Of a stretch of 64,000 nucleotides of DNA, positions 14,504 through 53,276 are shown one piece after another. The translations under genes were made by a program, and so were the position numbers. Position 1 is the stretch's first letter. The number at the start of each line of letters is the position of its first letter. The notes under the pieces are model-generated. The model was not told where the DNA came from and did not search any database. It saw nothing but the letters and a program-made list of their open reading frames with translations. The stretch is from the NCBI RefSeq assembly GCF_988242995.1, contig NZ_OZ547043.1, one strand, 5' to 3'.

Positions 14504-15103
14504 ATGGCGCATATACAACTGGTCAAACAAACCTCTTCCGGATTACTTCTCCCGGCGACGCCGGAGAGTTGTGATTTTCTGCATCAAATCAAAATAGGCG
14601 AGTGGATACACGCAGACTTTAAGCGTGTGCGTAACTACGCATTCCACAAGCGTTTTTTCAAACTCCTGCAACTGGGATTCGATTACTGGACTCCGGTCGG
14701 TGGGGCGATCACGCCTCGCGAACGAGAACAGCTGTCTGGTTTCGTTGATTACCTGTGCGAATCAGTTGGTCGGGAACACACGCCAGCCCTGAGTGATGCC
14801 GCAGAGCAATATCTGAATACAGTTGCGACACGCAGAACCCGGGATACGGCATTGCTAAAGTCGTTTGAGGCTTTTCGCGAGTGGGTAACCATTCAGGCTG
14901 GATTTTACACCGAACATTTTTATCCGGACGGTAGCCGCGGGCGTCGGGCAAAATCTATCGCTTTTGCGAATATGGACGAAACCGAGTTTCAGCAGGTTTA
15001 TAAATCTGTTCTGAATGTGCTGTGGAACTGGATTCTGTTCCGTAAATTTTCCTCTCCGGAACAAGTCGAAAATGTGGCCGCGCAGCTGCTGGAGTTTGCG
15101 TAA
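14504..15103 (+). CDS. Phage protein, DUF1367-like (nin-region)
   Basis: 199-aa ORF MAHIQLVKQTSSGLLLPATPESCDFLHQIKIGEW...; family call from memory and position before the YbcO-like gene. Confidence 0.5.
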   Translation: MAHIQLVKQTSSGLLLPATPESCDFLHQIKIGEWIHADFKRVRNYAFHKRFFKLLQLGFDYWTPVGGAITPREREQLSGFVDYLCESVGREHTPALSDAAEQYLNTVATRRTRDTALLKSFEAFREWVTIQAGFYTEHFYPDGSRGRRAKSIAFANMDETEFQQVYKSVLNVLWNWILFRKFSSPEQVENVAAQLLEFA

Positions 15104-43166: not shown

Positions 43167-45530
43167 GTGGATATGGCAGCAGTAAAAATCTCAGGTGTGC
43201 TGAAAGATGGTGCGGGAAAACCAATACAGAACTGCACTATTCAACTGAAGGCAAAGCGTAACAGCACCACGGTACTGGTGAACACGGTGGCCTCTGAAAA
43301 TCCGGATGAAGCCGGGCGTTACAGCATGGATGTTGAGTATGGTCAGTACAGCGTCACCCTGCTGGTTGAAGGTTTTCCGCCTTCACATGCCGGGACCATT
43401 ACCGTCTATGAAGGTTCCAGACCAGGTACGCTGAATGATTTTCTCGGTGCCATGACGGAAGATGATGTCATGCCGGAGGCATTGCGTCGTTTTGAGGCAA
43501 TGGTGGAAGAAGCGGCACGCAACGCCGAAGCCGCCTCTCAGAGCGCAGCAGCGGCAAAGAAATCCGAAACTGCAGCGGCATCATCGAAGAACGCGGCGAA
43601 AACCTCAGAAACAAATGCAGCTAACAGCGCACAGGCGGCAGCGTCCTCGCAGACTGCATCGGCAAACTCCGCGACAGCAGCCAAAAAATCAGAAACCAAC
43701 GCGAAAAATAGCGAGACAGCCGCAAAGACGAGCGAAACCAACGCAAAGTCCAGCCAGACGGCAGCGAAAACAAGCGAAACGAATGCCAAAGCCAGTGAAA
43801 CTGCGGCAAAAAACAGCCAGGTTGCAGCAGCCCAAAGCGAGAGCGCGGCAGCCGGTTCTGCGACTTCAGCAGCTGGATCAGCAACTGCTGCGGCTAACAG
43901 CCAGAAAGCTGCGAAGACGAGTGAAACTAACGCAAAGTCCAGCCAGACGGCAGCGAAGACCAGCGAAACGAATGCCAAAGCCAGCGAAACTGCGGCGAAA
44001 AACAGTCAGGATGCAGCAGCCCAAAGCGAGAGTGCTGCAGCTGGTTCTGCCACTGCATCAGCCAACAGTCAAAAAGCAGCAAAAACCAGTGAAACCAATG
44101 CAAAGACAAGCGAGACTGCAGCGGCGAACTCGGCGAAAGCATCCGCTGCAAGCCAGACCGCTGCAAAAGCAAGTGAAGACGCAGCCAGAGAGTATGCAAG
44201 CCAGGCAGCAGATCCGTATAAATATGTCTTACAGCCGCTGCCTGATGTGTGGATACCGTTTAACGATTCACTGGATATGATTACGGGCTTTTCGCCATCA
44301 TATAAAAAGATTGTTATTGGTGACGACGAAATAACGATGCCTGGCGACAAGATTGTTAAGTTTAAACGTGCATCGAAAGCAACCTATATTAACAAATCTG
44401 GTGTGTTGACAGAGGCTGCCATTGATGAGCCACGATTTGAACGTGATGGCCTGCTTATTGAGGGGCAAAGAACTAATCTTCTGCTTAATTCAACAAATCC
44501 ATCTAAATGGAATAAGTCAGGCAATCTGGAACTCACAGAAATATCCACGGATTCTTTTAATTTTACTTATGGGAGATTTACTGTAAAAGATACTCTTATT
44601 GGTCAGACAAGTGCTATTAATATCGTAACGATTTCTGGCAGTAAAGGGTTTGATGTCACAGGTGATGAAAAATATGTGACCATTTCATGCCGTGTAAGAA
44701 GTGATGTTGAAAATATAAGGTGTCGTTTAAGATTTGAACACCATGATGGTTATACTTACACTTTTTTGGGAGATGCTTACCTCAATTTATCAACACTTGT
44801 AATTGATAAAACTGGTACTGCTGCAGACCGTATTATTGCAAAGGCTGTAAAAGATGAGGTTACTGGTTGGATTTTCTATCAGGCTACAATTAATGCACTA
44901 GATACAGAGAGCATGATTGGTGCGATGGTTCAATACGCTCCTGTAAAAGGTTCAGGTACAGCATCTGGAGACTATCTGGATATCGCAACTCCACAAGTGG
45001 AAGGTGGATCAAGTGCTTCGTCATTTATTGTAACTGATATAACTGCAAGCACTCGCGCAAGCGATATGGTGACAGTCCCAATCAAGAATAACCTTTATAA
45101 TCTTCCTTTTACGGTTCTTTGTGAGGTACATAAGAACTGGTATAAAACGCCAAATGCAGCACCGCGTGTTTTTGATACCGGCGGTCATCAAACCGGAGCG
45201 GCTATTATTCTTGGCTTCGGTCGTTCAACAGATTACGACGGATTTCCTTATTGTGATATAGGTTTGGCTAACAGACGGGTAAACGAAAACGCATCGCTTG
45301 AAAAAATGGTTATGGGGATGCGTGTAAAGTCAGATCAGTCTACGTGCTCAGTAAGTAACGGGCGTATATCCAGCGAAAAGAAAGCCACATGGTCCTATAT
45401 TCAGAACTCCGCAATTATCCGTATTGGAGGCCAGACTACAGCCGGGTTGCGTCATTTATTTGGTCATGTCAGGAATTTCAGAATATGGCACAAGGCATTG
45501 ACTGATGCTCAGATGGGGGAGTCAATCTAA
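43167..45530 (+). CDS. stf: Side tail fibre protein (Stf-like) with Ala/Ser/Thr-rich repeats and distinct C-terminal domain
   Basis: N-terminus MAAVKISGVLKDGAGKPIQNCTIQLKAKRNSTT... as lambda Stf; C-terminal third is visibly AT-rich and ends with a motif I read as LamG-like (RNFRIWHKALTDAQ). Confidence 0.85.
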   Translation: MDMAAVKISGVLKDGAGKPIQNCTIQLKAKRNSTTVLVNTVASENPDEAGRYSMDVEYGQYSVTLLVEGFPPSHAGTITVYEGSRPGTLNDFLGAMTEDDVMPEALRRFEAMVEEAARNAEAASQSAAAAKKSETAAASSKNAAKTSETNAANSAQAAASSQTASANSATAAKKSETNAKNSETAAKTSETNAKSSQTAAKTSETNAKASETAAKNSQVAAAQSESAAAGSATSAAGSATAAANSQKAAKTSETNAKSSQTAAKTSETNAKASETAAKNSQDAAAQSESAAAGSATASANSQKAAKTSETNAKTSETAAANSAKASAASQTAAKASEDAAREYASQAADPYKYVLQPLPDVWIPFNDSLDMITGFSPSYKKIVIGDDEITMPGDKIVKFKRASKATYINKSGVLTEAAIDEPRFERDGLLIEGQRTNLLLNSTNPSKWNKSGNLELTEISTDSFNFTYGRFTVKDTLIGQTSAINIVTISGSKGFDVTGDEKYVTISCRVRSDVENIRCRLRFEHHDGYTYTFLGDAYLNLSTLVIDKTGTAADRIIAKAVKDEVTGWIFYQATINALDTESMIGAMVQYAPVKGSGTASGDYLDIATPQVEGGSSASSFIVTDITASTRASDMVTVPIKNNLYNLPFTVLCEVHKNWYKTPNAAPRVFDTGGHQTGAAIILGFGRSTDYDGFPYCDIGLANRRVNENASLEKMVMGMRVKSDQSTCSVSNGRISSEKKATWSYIQNSAIIRIGGQTTAGLRHLFGHVRNFRIWHKALTDAQMGESI
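43722..44100 (+). repeat. Imperfect tandem duplication (about 189-bp unit, 2 copies) inside stf
   Basis: Units beginning near 43722 and 43911 encode KTSETNAKSSQTAAKTSETNAKASETAAKNSQ.AAAQSESAAAGSAT; boundaries approximate. Confidence 0.7.
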
Positions 45531-46829: not shown

Positions 46830-46839
46830 AAAAAGGTGA

Positions 46840-46968
46840 GCTGTATATGCAACGGAGGAAGAAACCCCGTTGCTGGAAGCCTGGAAAAAGTATCGGATGC
46901 TGCTGAACCGTGTTGATACATCAACTGCACCTGATATTGAGTGGCCTACGAACCCTGTCAGGGAGTAA
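46840..46968 (+). pseudogene. tfa: Remnant of tail fibre assembly gene tfa (C-terminal about 40 codons only)
   Basis: Translation ...[37 protein letters not shown] matches the conserved C-terminus of lambda Tfa; no upstream ORF in frame. Confidence 0.75.
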
Positions 46969-47180
46969 TCATTGGGATTATGCCGCAGAAACGTTGTATG
47001 CAATAACGTTCTGCGGTTGGCTGATGCACTTTCGAGAGTGCATGTATTGAATTATTTCCAGCTATTATCGATTTTACGTATTTTTTGCATGAGAGAATTT
47101 GTACCTCCTCCCAACAACGACCTTCCATGACTTTCCGGACTTCTGTGGGCCAGCGGACGATGCTGCCCTCGGATGTTGTG

Positions 47181-48038
47181 CTAATTGGGTGATGACAAAT
47201 CCTGTGTATGGGTGTTTCCCTTTGTGCGTGCGTTGATGCTGGTAACGGTGAACGTCATGATGAACACAACCGCGAATAAGACGACAATCGTCGGAGCTGG
47301 TGCACTGTCGATAAAAAAGGACAACCAGACACCAGTCATTGACACTATTACCGATATGCCAATCGCCAGTAGGAGCGCAATATGAAAGCGTTGTGTCAGG
47401 AGTACCGCAATGGCGCCAGGCGCAATGAGCAGAGAAATGGAGAGAATGATACCTACCGCTTTCAGCGTCGCCACAATGGTCAGAGAGACCATGCACAGCA
47501 GCCCATAATGCAGACATCTCGTATGCAAACCGCTTACCTGCGCCTGTTGATAATCAAAGCTGAACAGCAAAAAATCCCGCCATTTTACGCTAATAACAAG
47601 TGTAACCAGCCCGGCAATAATCACCGTCTGGATTATATCGCCGATGGTTACCCCGAGCATGTCGCCGAAAAGAATATGGTCAAGATGTACGTCTGGTTTG
47701 ACTGCAATATACAAGATCAGACCTGCGGCAAACATGCCAGAAAAAACAATCCCCATCACTGTATCTTGCTTGATTCGGCTGTTGTCTTTCAGGTATCCCG
47801 TCGCCACCGCGCAGAATACTCCGGCGACGAATGCCCCTGTAGCCAGAGGTAACCCCAGAATCCAGGCAAGCACGATGCCAGGAAAAACCGCATGACTCAT
47901 CGCGTCACCCATCAGTGCCCAACCTTTCAGGACCAGAAAGACCGACAGCAGCGCACAGGGTATGGAAACTACCAGTGAAATCAGCAGTGCGTGACTCATA
48001 AAGGTGAACTGCAGTGGCTCCAGTAATAATGCCATCAT
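47181..48038 (-). CDS. sitD: Mn/Fe ABC transporter permease SitD
   Basis: 285-aa polytopic membrane ORF, last gene of a four-gene metal ABC operon. Confidence 0.85.
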   Translation of the reverse strand: MMALLLEPLQFTFMSHALLISLVVSIPCALLSVFLVLKGWALMGDAMSHAVFPGIVLAWILGLPLATGAFVAGVFCAVATGYLKDNSRIKQDTVMGIVFSGMFAAGLILYIAVKPDVHLDHILFGDMLGVTIGDIIQTVIIAGLVTLVISVKWRDFLLFSFDYQQAQVSGLHTRCLHYGLLCMVSLTIVATLKAVGIILSISLLIAPGAIAVLLTQRFHIALLLAIGISVIVSMTGVWLSFFIDSAPAPTIVVLFAVVFIMTFTVTSINARTKGNTHTQDLSSPN

Positions 48039-48892
48039 GAGCGATCCTCCAGCGCTTTATGCGCACGCCGACGATTTGCCAAAAGCCCATGGGTGGGCGC
48101 AAATACAAATGCTAAAAGAAACAGCAGTGTCTGCGCCACCACGATGATTCCACCTGTCGCGCCGTCCAGAAAGTAACTGACCCACGCGCCGAGGAAACTG
48201 GTTACACTGCCAATAGTTACAGCAATTATGAGCAGGCGGGGAAAACGATCGGTTAACAACCATGCTGTTGCACCGGGAGTCACCACCAGACAGATCACCA
48301 GAAAGGCACCAACCGTTTGCAGCGCCGCAACGGTCGAAACCGACAGCAGGGTGAAGAAGAGGATTTTTAATCTGCCCGGATGCAATCCAATAGCACGAGC
48401 GTGATTCTCGTCGAAAAAGGTCACCATAAGATCTTTCCATTTGAAAAAAAGCACGATGATCGAGAGAATGCCAATGATAGTGAGTTGCAGGATATCCGCC
48501 GGATCGATTGCCAGAATATTGCCCAGGACGATGGTCTGAATGTTCACGGATGTCGGGTTCAATGACACCATAAACAGCCCCAGGCCAAAAAAGGAGGAGA
48601 AGATCAGGCCGATGATGGCATCTTCTTTTAAGCGAGTGCGTTGGTTAAGAAACAGCATGCTGCCCGCTGCCAGTCCGCCGGAAAAGAAGGCTCCCAGAGA
48701 AAACGGAAGCCCCAGCATATATGCCCCCGCAACACCCGGGACAATAGAGTGCGACAGCGCATCGCCAATCAGCGACCAGCCTTTTAGCATCAGATAGCAT
48801 GACAGGAAAGCGCAGAGACCGCCGACCATCGCCGAGACCCACATCGCATTGAGCATATATTCATAGCTGAAGGGTTCCAGTAGCACGTTCAT
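48035..48892 (-). CDS. sitC: Mn/Fe ABC transporter permease SitC
   Basis: 285-aa membrane ORF paralogous to the downstream permease. Confidence 0.85.
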
Positions 48893-49716
48893 CTTGCTTC
48901 CCCCTGCACCGCTGACGGTCGATGTGCCACAAAAGGGTGTTCATCGTCAGTAATAATGCTTTCTTCCGAGCCGTTAAGTGTGACATGGCGCAGTACGCCG
49001 CTAAAAGCCAGCTCCAGGTTCTCGGCTGTAAAAGTGGTGTCTGTCGGCCCGCTTGCCAGGACGGTGCCTTTGACCATGACCGTATAATCGCAAAATGTCG
49101 TGACTGAGCCGAGATTGTGCGTTGAGACAAGCATCGTCTTGCCTTCCGCGCGTAACTCCCTCAACAGGCTGATGATTTTCGCTTCGGTTTTCACATCAAC
49201 GCCCGTAAAAGGTTCATCCAGCAGGATCACATCACCCTGCTGTGCAATCGCTCTCGCCAGAAAGACGCGTTTCTTTTGTCCACCGGAAAGCTCGCCGATT
49301 TGTCGATGGCGAAAATCCACCATATCGACACGTTCCAGCGCATCGGTGACAATCTGACGATCCCTCTTTTTGGCTATACGCAACATACCCATGTGCCCAT
49401 AGCGGCCCATCATCACCACATCTTCCACTAGTACAGGAAATGACCAGTCAACCTCTTCTGACTGAGGGACGTAGGCAACCAGGTTTTTCTGTAGCGCCTG
49501 TCGCGTGGGAATACCCAGAACAGATATCTTTCCGCTGGTCAGACGCACAAATCCCATAATCGCTTTAAACAACGTCGATTTTCCGGAACCGTTTACCCCA
49601 ACCAGAGCGGCAATAGATCCACTTGGTACTGTGAAGGATGCATCGCGCAGTGCTGTGTGCCCGTTACGCCAGGTGACAGTAACATCATTAACGACAATGC
49701 CCGCAGATTGCATCAT
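48889..49716 (-). CDS. sitB: Mn/Fe ABC transporter ATP-binding protein SitB
   Basis: Walker [13 protein letters not shown] signature LSGGQKKR, Walker [12 protein letters not shown]. Confidence 0.9.
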
Positions 49717-50630
49717 TATTTCTCCCTTTTCCCGGCTTTAATTCCCTGTACCAGCGTACTGGTAGTAACCTTCAGAAGGTCGATATACGTAGGTACCGGG
49801 CCGTTTTCTGTGCTCAGGGAATCGACATAGAGTACACCGCCGTAGTGCGCGCCGGTTTCACGCGCAACCTGACGCGCTGGTTTATCGGAAATCGTACTCT
49901 CGCTAAAGACTGCCGGGATATGATTTTTCTTCACCATATCAACAACCTTACGTACCTGCTGCGGCGTGCCTTGTTGATCGGCATTAATCGGCCACAGATA
50001 AAGCTCTTTTAGCCCCAAATCGCGTGCGAGATAAGAAAAAGCCCCTTCACTGGTGACCATCCATCGCTGATTCTCAGGGAGTTCAGCAATCTGCTTACGC
50101 AGGGGGGCAAGGGTTTGGGTAATCTTGGCTTTATAAGTATCGGCATTACGTTGGTAGGTTTGTGCATTTGCCGGATCGTATTTTATCAACGCATCACGAA
50201 TATTATCGACGTAAATCAGAGCATTATCTGGCGACATCCAGGCATGGGGGTTAGGTTTGCCCTCATAGGGGCCTTCAGTGATCCCTACTGGCGTCACACC
50301 CGAAGAGACAATTACTTCTGGAACCCCATTAAGATGCTGGTAAAAGCGTTGGAACCACAATTCCAGATTCATACCATTGGCGAGAATCAGTTGTGCCCCC
50401 TGCGCACGTTTAATATCGCCAGGGGTAGGCTGATACTCATGAATTTCTGCACCGGGCTTGGTTATGGATGAGACTTCTGCAGCATCTCCAGCCACGTTTT
50501 TGGCCATATCTGCGATGATGGTAAATGTTGTAATGACCTTGAATTTTTCAGTTGCACTCGCCTGAAATGCGATCGAGCAGGTGAGGGCGAGGCACCCCAA
50601 GAGCATGGTTACTTTTTTTATTGAGTACAT
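49716..50630 (-). CDS. sitA: Periplasmic Mn/Fe-binding protein SitA
   Basis: 304-aa ORF with signal peptide; metal-binding SBP family; first gene of operon. Confidence 0.85.
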
Positions 50631-50663
50631 AATTTAGTACCTATAGTGAGCAAAATTAGAACA

Positions 50664-50683
50664 AACATAGCAACGGCTATGTT
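50664..50683. promoter_or_regulatory. MntR operator-like palindrome upstream of sitA
   Basis: AACATAGCaacgGCTATGTT, the same palindrome type as the mntH MntR box as I recall. Confidence 0.6.
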
Positions 50684-50706
50684 TTATAGCACAACCTATA
50701 CAAAAT

Positions 50707-50725
50707 GAAAATGATTATCATTAGC
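50707..50725. promoter_or_regulatory. Fur box upstream of sitA
   Basis: GAAAATGATTATCATTAGC matches 16 of 19 positions of the Fur consensus GATAATGATAATCATTATC. Confidence 0.65.
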
Positions 50726-51216
50726 AGCTTTGGGGCCCAAAACAGGGATTAGGTTGTTTCCTGCTGGCGACGCGTTATTGAGGAAAAAAGTAAGGCAGCT
50801 AGTAGGCTTTGAAATGACTTGATGAGGAAAATTGTTGATGGCAAAAATGGGGCAAAGCGCTGCAAAAGGGGCAAAAAAGGGGCAAAAAAAGAGTGGGTTA
50901 TCGTAGCTTATTGTTGTCGCTGATGATATTTAACACATTGAAAAATAAGTAAAATACTTATGAGTCAGAGAGTTGTGATTTTTGCCCTTACTTGTTCAGG
51001 TTGTATTGTTCTTTCTTACTAAATTCTTGATTTTGCGACATTTAAAAGCGACTCAATTCGTTATATGGCATCAGAAGAGTATGCGTCATGCCGGAACGCC
51101 CAGCATAAGAAATCTGATATAAAAACTGTGGCGTGTATGGTACGGATTAGAGGGGAAAATGTCAGCACATTTGCGAAATGAATCAAAAAGCCCGCAGGAA
51201 TGTGCGGGCGTTAGTG

Positions 51217-51732
<516 letters not shown>

Positions 51733-52910: not shown

Positions 52911-53138
52911 TGAATAAATCCTTTAGTTATTTTATTTGCCTTTTCATCCCCATTTTGGGGAGTGAAAGCATCCTAAAGGAGAAGTTCAGTTAGCCGATAA
53001 ATATCATTTGTTACGCCTTAAGTAAAACCTTAATCAAATAATTCTTCTGAAATGATAATAAGTCTGGTGAATGTATTGAAGATAATACATACAAAATAAA
53101 AATTATACTTTTAATTTGCTATACGTTATTCTGCGCGG

Positions 53139-53248
53139 GTTATATGCCTTTATTGTCACAGATTTTATTTTCTGTTGGGCCATTGCGTTGCTACTGATTT
53201 TCCAACAAATAATGAGACAAGCCCGAACAGTCGTTCGGGCTTTTTTTT
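53139..53248 (+). ncRNA. micC: MicC small regulatory RNA
   Basis: GTTATATGCCTTTATTGTCACAGATTTTATTTTCTGTTGGGCCATTG... ending in hairpin gcccgaacagtcgttcgggc plus T-run; matches K-12 micC from memory; between ompN and ydbK. Confidence 0.8.
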
Positions 53249-53276
53249 AGAATTGGATAATCCTTATCCAGTGCAT

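Follow-up and report, generated by a model that had tools for sequence, protein, structure and literature searches.

The window, by which the whole 64-kb stretch of DNA analysed is meant, contains on its minus strand a block of four contiguous and intact open reading frames (47181-50630), which overlap their neighbours by 1-4 nt and encode, in this order, a binding protein, an ATPase and two permeases of 304, 275, 285 and 285 amino acids. The lengths are those of the RefSeq genes sitA-D in a genome that is 99.9% identical, and the region from sit to uspF shows the same 99.9% identity to annotated sitABCD-uspF in RefSeq genomes. With the operon on the minus strand, "upstream of sitA" refers to the high-coordinate end of the interval. 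The base composition of the operon (GC 0.49-0.53) did not reveal any anomaly.

SitA is a binding protein of the ZnuA/YfeA type, with a ZnuA/TroA fold, whose nearest members bind Mn/Fe. The solved structure closest to it is that of Yersinia YfeA (5UXS, E=9e-125), cyanobacterial MntC being also among the best, and in the profile search the zinc-specific models AztC, ZnuA and AdcA all fell below their cutoffs for this protein. SitB scores 589.6 bits (cutoff 393) for PRK15056, "manganese/iron ABC transporter ATP-binding protein" (NF011630), and all four proteins are matched over their full length by PHROG families, phrog_8216 in the case of SitA. The four-gene Mn/Fe ABC transporter (SBP, ATPase and two permeases) described in the initial annotation is borne out by the reading frames and by the PF01297, PRK15056 and PF00950 scores collected in Table 1. 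Judged by its sequence, the operon is sitABCD, which would encode an Mn2+/Fe2+ ABC importer of the SitABCD/YfeABCD type (cluster A-I). Transport of both Mn2+ and Fe2+ is known for the Sit orthologues of APEC, Shigella and Salmonella (PMC3852070).

Table 1. Features of the sit locus and of the adjoining prophage end, in window positions.
Feature	Position	Strand	Basis and details
Tail-fibre assembly gene 3' remnant (tfaR-like)	46848-46946	+	89.9% identical to the 3' end of K-12 tfaR
X, conserved linker of the lambdoid b-region; contains two hairpins and lies downstream of sitD	46975-47160	.	E. coli genome search
sit cassette as transferable unit (sitDCBA and ~190-215 bp of promoter)	47152-50845	-	Homology breakpoints
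sitD, permease, 285 aa	47181-48038	-	PF00950 (ABC-3), 257.3 bits; phrog_4782
sitC, permease, 285 aa	48035-48892	-	PF00950 (ABC-3), 279.4 bits; phrog_4782, full length
sitB, ABC ATPase, 275 aa	48889-49716	-	NCBIfam equivalog NF011630 (PRK15056); PF00005
sitA, periplasmic Mn/Fe-binding protein with signal peptide, 304 aa	49716-50630	-	PF01297, 289.9 bits; annotated SitA in 99.9% identical genome
Predicted MntR operator, perfect dyad AACATAGC-N4-GCTATGTT	50664-50683	.	Unique exact match in the window
Second, degenerate MntR-like dyad	50683-50702	.	9/16 of the specified positions match; core ATAG-N5-GCTAT; lies 19 bp farther upstream than the perfect dyad
Putative sigma-70 promoter	50683-50711	-	-35 TTTTCA (50711-50706), 17-nt spacer, extended -10 TGcTATAAA (50691-50683)
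Predicted Fur box GCTAATGATAATCATTTTC	50707-50725	-	17/19 to consensus; reaches into the putative -35 at its 3' end
Rac-type attachment-site arm (P' arm), 153 bp	50839-50991	.	99.4% identical to the right end of K-12 Rac
ttcC remnant, the original ttcA 5' end (MSQNQEFSKKEQYNLNK*), 17 codons, severed by prophage integration	50988-51041	-	Aligned against the uninterrupted ttcA of strain 042
attR core AAGAAAGAACAATACAACCTGAACAA	50992-51017	-	Sole block common to three sequences: attR of the window, attL of an O121 Rac remnant, and the unoccupied ttcA attB of strain 042
uspF	51217-51651		ompN is next after uspF

As initially noted, sitABCD stands between the tail-fibre assembly remnant and uspF, a position that in K-12 is taken by pinR-ydfK-ynaM and holds no such operon. 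In the 99.9% identical genome, the annotation gives the remnant as a partial tail fiber assembly protein, and an intact tfaR occupies the same position in strain PapM-32-1. Homology to K-12 Rac restarts at 50839, and relative to K-12 the sit module constitutes an insertion at 47021-50838. The limits of the cassette, of ~3.7 kb, are given by homology breakpoints with other carriers: the ColV plasmid pGZM7a matches 47152-50845 at 96.6% and the ST131 icd-prophage matches 47161-50818 at 98.0%, the cassette ending only 20-29 bp after the stop codon of sitD. The linker X, which follows it, is present in 5331 of 5426 E. coli genomes, at 14,600 places in all and with a median of three copies per genome, and its neighbours in a lambda lysogen are genes identified as ea47 and ea31, one on each side. 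In the region downstream of sitD, the Rfam E-value search returned nothing but an IS009 match below threshold, located over the tfa remnant.

The same operon is carried by 27 records deposited as phage genomes, including phage 21, Perceval and the Lambda_ev phages. Phage 21 (OL657228.1), a phage isolate of the 1950s obtained from sewer water according to the source note of its record, has sit in the same b-region slot, with the tail-fibre genes on one side and attP/int on the other, and the phage-21-type sit-icd' junction appears in 739 genomes. The prophage Perceval has been reported to carry sitABCD as a moron operon, whose transcription in the LF82 lysogen exceeds the prophage background, and to give particles containing Perceval DNA (PMC9928086). 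In addition, several insertion sites and phage-like genes have been described for the sit island (PMC7545054). At least one of the 27 records, that of the best phage match, "Salmonella phage SPF_0923" (99.5%), was rejected as evidence of phage carriage: the record holds uspF, ompN and pfo, and it is a mis-delimited prophage of the same E. coli locus. In total, sitA occupies 2728 places, 1681 of them chromosomal (~1240 assigned to a context and ~440 in other contexts) and about 1047 on plasmids.

This plasmid fraction could suggest a different history, in which the cassette would not be phage cargo at all, and an IS or transposon would have inserted it into a resident, already decaying prophage, plasmids being its main means of spread. 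The cassette of ColV-type plasmids, located beside the aerobactin genes, is indeed flanked by IS1 and a Tn3 remnant, there are IS elements near sit in some relatives, and both IS elements and RecA-dependent rearrangements have been stressed for the sit island (PMC7545054). However, the window shows no IS beside the cassette, whose flanks there are conserved lambdoid b-region sequence and not transposon ends; the slot is the same in phage genome records such as those of phage 21 and Perceval, and full-length PHROG families exist for the four proteins. Thus, an origin of this kind seems very improbable.

The region upstream of sitA contains the two sites on which dual metal regulation had been proposed. 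The MntR-type palindrome, AACATAGCAACGGCTATGTT, has one exact match in the 64-kb window, at 50664-50683, with 0 expected from shuffles, and the inverted repeat AAACATAGC-N4-GCTATGTTT is exact over 50663-50684. The dyad and the putative -10 share one base, the last of the -10, and the dyad spans the expected transcription start. The Fur box, to which the initial annotation gave 16 of 19 consensus positions, has this score on the plus strand (three mismatches to GATAATGATAATCATTATC) and a better one, 17/19, on the minus, coding strand (two mismatches); it is the only such site in the 64 kb, for which 0.03 matches would be expected by chance. The hexamers of the sigma-70 promoter, which were read by eye and are conserved in alignments of sitA promoters, probably drive sitA, and on this reading the Fur box would overlap the -35. 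A simple promoter consensus scan did not call the sitA promoter, because its -10, TATAAA, ends in A and the rule wants T at position 6. The label "terminator-like", which the scan output attached to the MntR palindrome, was discarded, as the element sits upstream of the start codon and is identical to the mntH dyad. At the gathering threshold, Rfam gave only MicC, outside the operon, and no evidence of an RNA element in the sit leader.

The dyad that precedes K-12 mntH has half-sites (9+9) and a 4-nt spacer length identical to those of the sitA dyad, the distance to the start codon being 14 nt in mntH versus 34 nt in sitA. A Fur-like site lies ~20 bp upstream of the mntH dyad, and the order, Fur box and then MntR dyad, is that of sitA. 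A cross-genus scan recovered the dyad at 120 loci or more, about three quarters of them in unrelated taxa with neither mntH nor sitA, only the Enterobacterales matches being informative; among the classified loci, the exact dyad precedes mntH at no fewer than 26 (13-16 nt) and sitA homologues at no fewer than five (34-74 nt). In unrelated taxa, a palindrome of 16 specified bases occurs for other reasons. Both boxes are present at the sitA orthologues of Citrobacter, Enterobacter, Cedecea and Dryocola (74-77% amino acid identity), and the Fur core, AATGATAAT-ATT--CAT, is invariant in seven sitA promoters from five genera, whose flanks are unalignable. They are also retained in the ST131 allele and in the ColV plasmid allele, despite the promoter of the latter being only 83% identical. 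Repression of sit by MntR and Fur has been experimentally established in Salmonella and Shigella, and the mntH promoter is likewise repressed by both (PMC3852070; PMC8970401). According to Ikeda 2005, as cited in PMC3852070, the equivalent boxes of the Salmonella sit operon mediate this repression.

It might still be thought that the sequences resembling Fur and MntR sites arose by chance or are relics without function, the operon being constitutive or controlled by the phage, since AT-rich promoters frequently look like Fur boxes. Such an explanation is hardly credible, taking into account that the expectation per 64 kb is only 0 for the MntR dyad and 0.03 for the Fur box, that the dyad equals the one upstream of K-12 mntH, a promoter reported to be MntR-repressed, that both boxes stand out as invariant islands in orthologue promoters of other genera that cannot otherwise be aligned, and that the published genetics, to the extent cited in PMC3852070, assigns repression to their Salmonella equivalents. 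The proposal of dual metal regulation is thus supported by the mntH-identical dyad, by conservation across genera and by the repression published for Salmonella and Shigella.

At the other side of the promoter, homology to prophage-free genomes breaks at 50992, inside ttcA and 362 bp beyond the start of sitA. The att core was defined from the attL of another genome, because neither an attL nor a direct repeat of the attR region was found in the 64-kb window, the left end of the prophage lying beyond the window start. The P' arm, located between the sit promoter and this core, contains tandem TTTTGCCCC motifs (50868-50876 and 50879-50887) together with degenerate copies, which may be integrase arm sites. 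The sit operon is therefore inside the prophage, within its att boundaries, and this is what the two comparisons suggested in the initial annotation, that of the junction across E. coli and the search for the attR core, have yielded.

The ttcA attB is uninterrupted in 2489 of 5426 complete E. coli genomes, and in every empty-site genome inspected ttcA abuts uspF without sit; that is, the operon was not seen at this locus in prophage-free strains, an arrangement that the initial annotation had regarded as the mark of a core operon. Sit, the Rac arm and uspF occur together in 475-501 genomes, out of ~2900 occupied ttcA sites, and sit is found at the uspF junction in ~9% of complete E. coli genomes. 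The sit-bearing ttcA sites include both an intact Rac-like prophage and a 16-kb decayed remnant with the arrangement ttcA-intR-xisR...sitDCBA-uspF. The idea that sitABCD is an ancestral chromosomal operon of the uspF locus, lost by K-12 and lying beside the prophage by coincidence, would fit its adjacency to the core genes uspF and ompN and the presence of the junction in that ~9% of genomes, but it can practically be discarded, given that the DNA between sitA and the breakpoint is a Rac-type att arm, that the genomes with intact attB that were inspected show ttcA abutting uspF, and that the same cassette exists in phage 21 and in prophages integrated in icd.

Taken together, it is very probable that sitABCD is a self-regulated moron, which a Rac-type lambdoid prophage in ttcA carries in its b-region. 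As this prophage is integrated in ttcA, in the lysogen the sit genes of the b-region end up beside attR and uspF. As a moron would be, the operon is dispensable, K-12 Rac being without sit at the same slot and only the fraction of occupied ttcA sites indicated above carrying it; a promoter of its own, with operators for host regulators, is predicted. The view that the operon is cargo mobilised with the prophage end is supported by its position inside attR, by its absence from the empty sites inspected and by its carriage in phage genomes.

Transcription of sit would start from the sigma-70 promoter, with the Fur box over the -35 and the MntR dyad over the -10/+1. As the operators would cover the promoter elements, RNA polymerase could be blocked by either of the two host repressors, Fur-Fe2+ or MntR-Mn2+, leaving the operon on only where iron and manganese are in short supply. 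Host tissue, macrophages and oxidative stress are settings in which these metals run short. SitA would then bind the metal in the periplasm and pass it to the SitC/SitD channel, SitB powering the process. The cassette would carry its own cis-regulatory region and plug into regulators already present in the host, and it would spread along with the phage, through recombination of lambdoid phages with one another and by way of ColV-type plasmids.

A further proposal, which for now appears rather unlikely, is that the cassette moves among lambdoid b-regions, and on to plasmids, by recombination at X and, separately, that the tandem MntR dyads form a cooperative two-dimer operator. As a recombination site, X would offer ~130-185 bp. 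X follows sitD here, but its homologous copy precedes sitA in phage 21 and ST131, which would imply an X-sit-X arrangement or a circular intermediate. Regarding the dyads, one is perfect and the other degenerate, in a fixed 19-bp register; in the sitA promoters of Enterobacter, Cedecea and Dryocola, it is the upstream dyad that is perfect and the downstream one that is degenerate, with the same register, so that strong and weak roles are swapped between clades. If true, a cooperative two-dimer MntR operator would be a feature not described for sit.

It has to be noted that the condition of sit as a prophage moron and its repression by Fur and MntR are already published and annotated, and nothing in them is new; the X linker flanking the cassette and the second, degenerate MntR-like dyad are minor additions. 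For this window, the value lies in the annotation, that is, in the right boundary of the prophage, given by the attR core, and in the limits of the cassette, while the predicted cis-elements brought by the operon would tie sit to the host Fur and MntR regulons. The operon aids the fitness and virulence of ExPEC, APEC, AIEC and Shigella, by providing Mn and Fe when the host restricts them and under oxidative stress. Because temperate phages carry it, sitABCD is found in several settings, on chromosomes as well as plasmids, in ~44% of complete E. coli genomes.

Among known systems, phage 21, Perceval of E. coli LF82 and the icd-prophage of ST131/UPEC contain the same cassette, with 98% nucleotide identity, the same orientation and Fur and MntR boxes equal to those of the window, in an equivalent slot after the tail-fibre genes and a 97-aa membrane protein and before the att site. 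However, the phage backbone and the integration site differ (icd for phage 21, versus a Rac-type prophage in ttcA here), the window has an extra 255 bp (the tfa remnant and X) between orf97 and sitD, it is without the hypothetical genes that phage 21 has between sitA and attP, and X is placed on the opposite side of the cassette. K-12 Rac shares the ttcA attachment site, the 153-bp right arm (99.4%) and the chromosomal flank uspF-ompN-micC-ydbK, but it has pinR-ydfK-ynaM between tfaR and the arm, and no sit. The ColV/ColBM-type virulence plasmids of APEC/ExPEC carry the same four genes (96.6% identical) with the same operator pair, although their promoter region is only 83% identical and their flanks are IS1 and a Tn3 remnant, not phage DNA. 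In the E. coli mntH promoter, the order of the sites and the dyad are as at sitA, but the dyad lies 14 nt, instead of 34 nt, from the start. Finally, Salmonella SitABCD and Yersinia YfeABCD belong to the same transporter family as the operon of the window (E=9e-125 for YfeA), the Salmonella sit operon being located at a chromosomal, non-prophage locus.

Both the att core and a Rac-type arm lie beyond the sit promoter, which places the sitDCBA operon inside the prophage integrated in ttcA. The 26-bp att core, AAGAAAGAACAATACAACCTGAACAA, was defined by a three-way comparison of attR in the window, attL in the Rac remnant of an O121 strain and the empty attB. Strain 042 and many more E. coli without the prophage share homology with the window from 50992 onwards, within the first 17 codons of ttcA. 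The displaced 5' end of this gene (MSQNQEFSKKEQYNLNK*) persists as a 17-codon equivalent of the ttcC pseudogene; its replacement N-terminus, as the O121 relative shows, comes from the prophage at attL. The 153-bp arm between sit promoter and core matches the right end of K-12 Rac at 99.4% identity. Its tandem TTTTGCCCC motifs, 11 bp apart and accompanied by two degenerate copies, probably serve the Rac integrase as arm-type binding sites; an analogous YYTTCCCCAAAA triplet is annotated at attP in the phage 21 record. Core and arm thus bear out the initial annotation, which had taken sit at the prophage-chromosome junction for likely prophage cargo and had left the att core to be identified. On the chromosomal flank, the interval separating ompN from the pyruvate:flavodoxin oxidoreductase gene contains the gene for the MicC sRNA (Rfam RF00121, 124.3 bits), the arrangement expected of this neighbourhood.

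Across 5426 complete genomes, attB in ttcA is uninterrupted in 2489, and ttcA abuts uspF directly in each one inspected. The arrangement of the window (sit, Rac arm and uspF) occurs in 475-501 genomes and sit joined to an icd remnant, the phage 21 type, in 739; sitA is found anywhere in 2382 (1681 chromosomal and 1047 plasmid places). K-12 Rac holds pinR-ydfK-ynaM in place of sit, in agreement with the earlier claim that K-12 lacks the operon at this position. It could be argued that sit was ancestral to the chromosome and that K-12 lost it, but the att boundaries and the empty ttcA sites contradict this. Among the genomes inspected, sit was never seen at the ttcA-uspF locus without a prophage, and its association with the prophage stands. 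In one inspected genome with sit next to uspF the Rac-like prophage is intact, and a complete tfaR immediately precedes the cassette. Another, E. coli O121 (L010, NZ_CP119441.1 2080850-2097508), carries a 16-kb Rac-type remnant disrupted by IS1 and IS66: nearly all structural genes are gone, while intR, xisR and an intact sitDCBA adjoining uspF remain, as would fit selective retention of the passenger operon while the prophage decayed.

The four ORFs of the operon are intact and closely packed. SitA belongs to the binding proteins of the ZnuA/TroA fold (PF01297, 289.9 bits), the nearest solved structure being Yersinia pestis YfeA (E=9e-125); SitB scores 589.6 bits against a cutoff of 393 for the curated NCBIfam manganese/iron ABC ATPase equivalog, and SitC and SitD are ABC-3 permeases by family search. 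All four proteins are matched full-length by PHROG families. The annotated sitA-sitD-uspF stretch of a RefSeq E. coli chromosome is 99.9% identical, with equal gene lengths, and the assignment as a four-gene Mn/Fe transporter is confirmed. By analogy, the operon may share the metal transport (PMC3852070) and regulator binding (PMC3852070; PMC8970401) published for near-identical or orthologous systems.

Coordinates of the sit region and its surroundings in the window
Feature	Position	Strand	Remark
Side tail-fibre gene	43167-45530		787 aa
Rfam IS009 match	46830-46925		tfa 3' remnant
X	46975-47160		186 bp
sit operon	47181-50630	minus	
sitD	47181-48038	minus	285 aa
sitC	48035-48892	minus	285 aa
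sitB	48889-49716	minus	275 aa
sitA	49716-50630	minus	304 aa
MntR-type palindrome	50664-50683		
Degenerate MntR-like dyad	50683-50702		
Putative extended -10, TGcTATAAA	50691-50683	minus	read from sequence; 17-nt spacer to -35
Putative -35, TTTTCA	50711-50706	minus	read from sequence
Fur box	50707-50725		
Rac-type arm	50839-50991		
Tandem TTTTGCCCC motifs	50868-50876, 50879-50887		with degenerate copies, in 50839-50892
ttcC equivalent	50988-51041		
att core	50992-51017		
micC	53136-53256		

The limits of the cassette were taken from pairwise comparisons: the plasmid copy aligns to 47152-50845, the phage 21/ST131 copy to 47161-50818, and K-12 Rac homology resumes at 50839. Hence the unit comprises the four genes, 20-29 bp past the sitD stop and a promoter region of ~190-215 bp. 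On plasmids, sit adjoins aerobactin genes and has IS1 and a Tn3 remnant at its borders; no IS flanks the cassette in the window. This absence, and the phage genome records that hold sit in the same slot, contradict the idea that an IS brought the cassette in secondarily, independently of the phage.

Downstream of sitD lies X, a stretch of 186 bp with two hairpins. It is dispersed over 14,600 places in 5331 of the 5426 genomes (median 3 per genome), none of them annotated; a lambda lysogen has it between genes taken as ea47 and ea31, and K-12 has a partial copy between ykgJ and ecpE. In phage 21 and ST131, by contrast, its homologue is on the opposite side of the cassette, upstream of sitA, and K-12 Rac keeps the hairpin part alone, abutting the att arm. 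We infer that X is a conserved inter-module linker of lambdoid b-regions at which passenger modules are exchanged by homologous recombination, which fits the classical modular picture of these phages.

Upstream of sitA, as had been proposed, lies the MntR-type palindrome AACATAGCAACGGCTATGTT; it occurs once in the window, with 0 expected by chance. The Fur box is the sole match to the 19-bp consensus within 64 kb (0.03 expected); the 16/19 reported earlier holds for the plus strand, and the coding strand gives 17/19. As an independent reference, the K-12 mntH promoter carries AAACATAGCAAAGGCTATGTTT 14 nt ahead of the start codon and a Fur-like TTGATAATCATTCTC ~20 bp further upstream, and thus agrees with sit in half-sites, spacer length and site order. 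Both boxes are retained in the ST131 allele (icd-integrated prophage) and in the ColV-plasmid allele, although the ColV promoter is elsewhere only 83% identical. Among the 120 matches listed in a cross-species scan, the exact dyad lies 13-16 nt before mntH at at least 26 enterobacterial loci and 34-74 nt before sitA homologues at at least five; the other loci belong to unrelated taxa and have neither gene. An alignment of seven sitA promoters from five genera, whose proteins are as little as 74% identical, shows the Fur core AATGATAAT-ATT--CAT and the dyad ATAGC-N4-GCTAT as invariant islands amid unalignable sequence. That the boxes are chance matches is contradicted by the shuffle statistics and by this conservation across genera.

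A second, degenerate dyad (ATAG-N5-GCTAT) lies 19 bp upstream of the perfect one and overlaps the putative -10. In the sitA promoters of Enterobacter, Cedecea and Dryocola it is the upstream dyad that is perfect and the downstream one that is degenerate, the 19-bp register being kept across genera with strong and weak roles swapped. The -35 and -10 elements suggest a sitA promoter, for which a generic promoter scan gave no call. The Fur box would cover its -35, and the MntR dyad would begin at the last -10 base and span the expected start site, so either repressor alone could block it by simple occlusion. In Salmonella and Shigella, experiments have established that MntR-Mn and Fur-Fe repress both sit and mntH (PMC3852070; PMC8970401).

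On the prophage side, the tail-fibre module differs from that of otherwise near-identical relatives. The side tail-fibre gene has a long Ala/Ser/Thr/Lys-rich repeat region (AAKTSETNAKSSQT...), which gives rise to several spurious long ORFs, both in other frames and on the reverse strand. Over the tfa 3' remnant, the Rfam match to IS009 stayed below threshold (63.9 bits; gathering score 117; E=2e-14) and was truncated where the searched segment ended; no IS009 match reached that score in the wider search.

The initial annotation had read the locus correctly. Twenty-seven phage records contain the sit cassette at 98% identity. In phage 21, a classical lambdoid phage, attP/int flank it on one side and, on the other, the side tail-fibre genes together with a 97-aa membrane protein; this slot is the nonessential b-region, which becomes the attR-proximal end once integrated. 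The record of 'Salmonella phage SPF_0923' (L007, ON032529.1, 99.5%), deposited as a complete phage, was rejected as evidence of phage carriage; since it holds uspF, ompN and a portion of the gene for pyruvate:flavodoxin oxidoreductase, it is apparently a wrongly delimited prophage region of this E. coli locus that takes in chromosomal flank. In the work of Fisher et al. 2009, sit islands reportedly also contain phage-like genes. A 'PAI sit' with several insertion sites is described in a review summarising that work (PMC7545054), and sitABCD is listed as a moron operon of prophage Perceval in AIEC LF82, transcribed above the prophage background (PMC9928086). The sequence-level defining features of the Sit/Yfe transporter family, the MntR operator and the Fur box are all present in the window, and the operon resembles a moron in its position between the att boundaries, its dispensability and its carriage by phages, with a predicted promoter of its own. 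The finding of sit at this locus is not new, because it re-describes a documented system; originality is limited to the side-switching X linker and the degenerate MntR-like dyad at 50702-50683.
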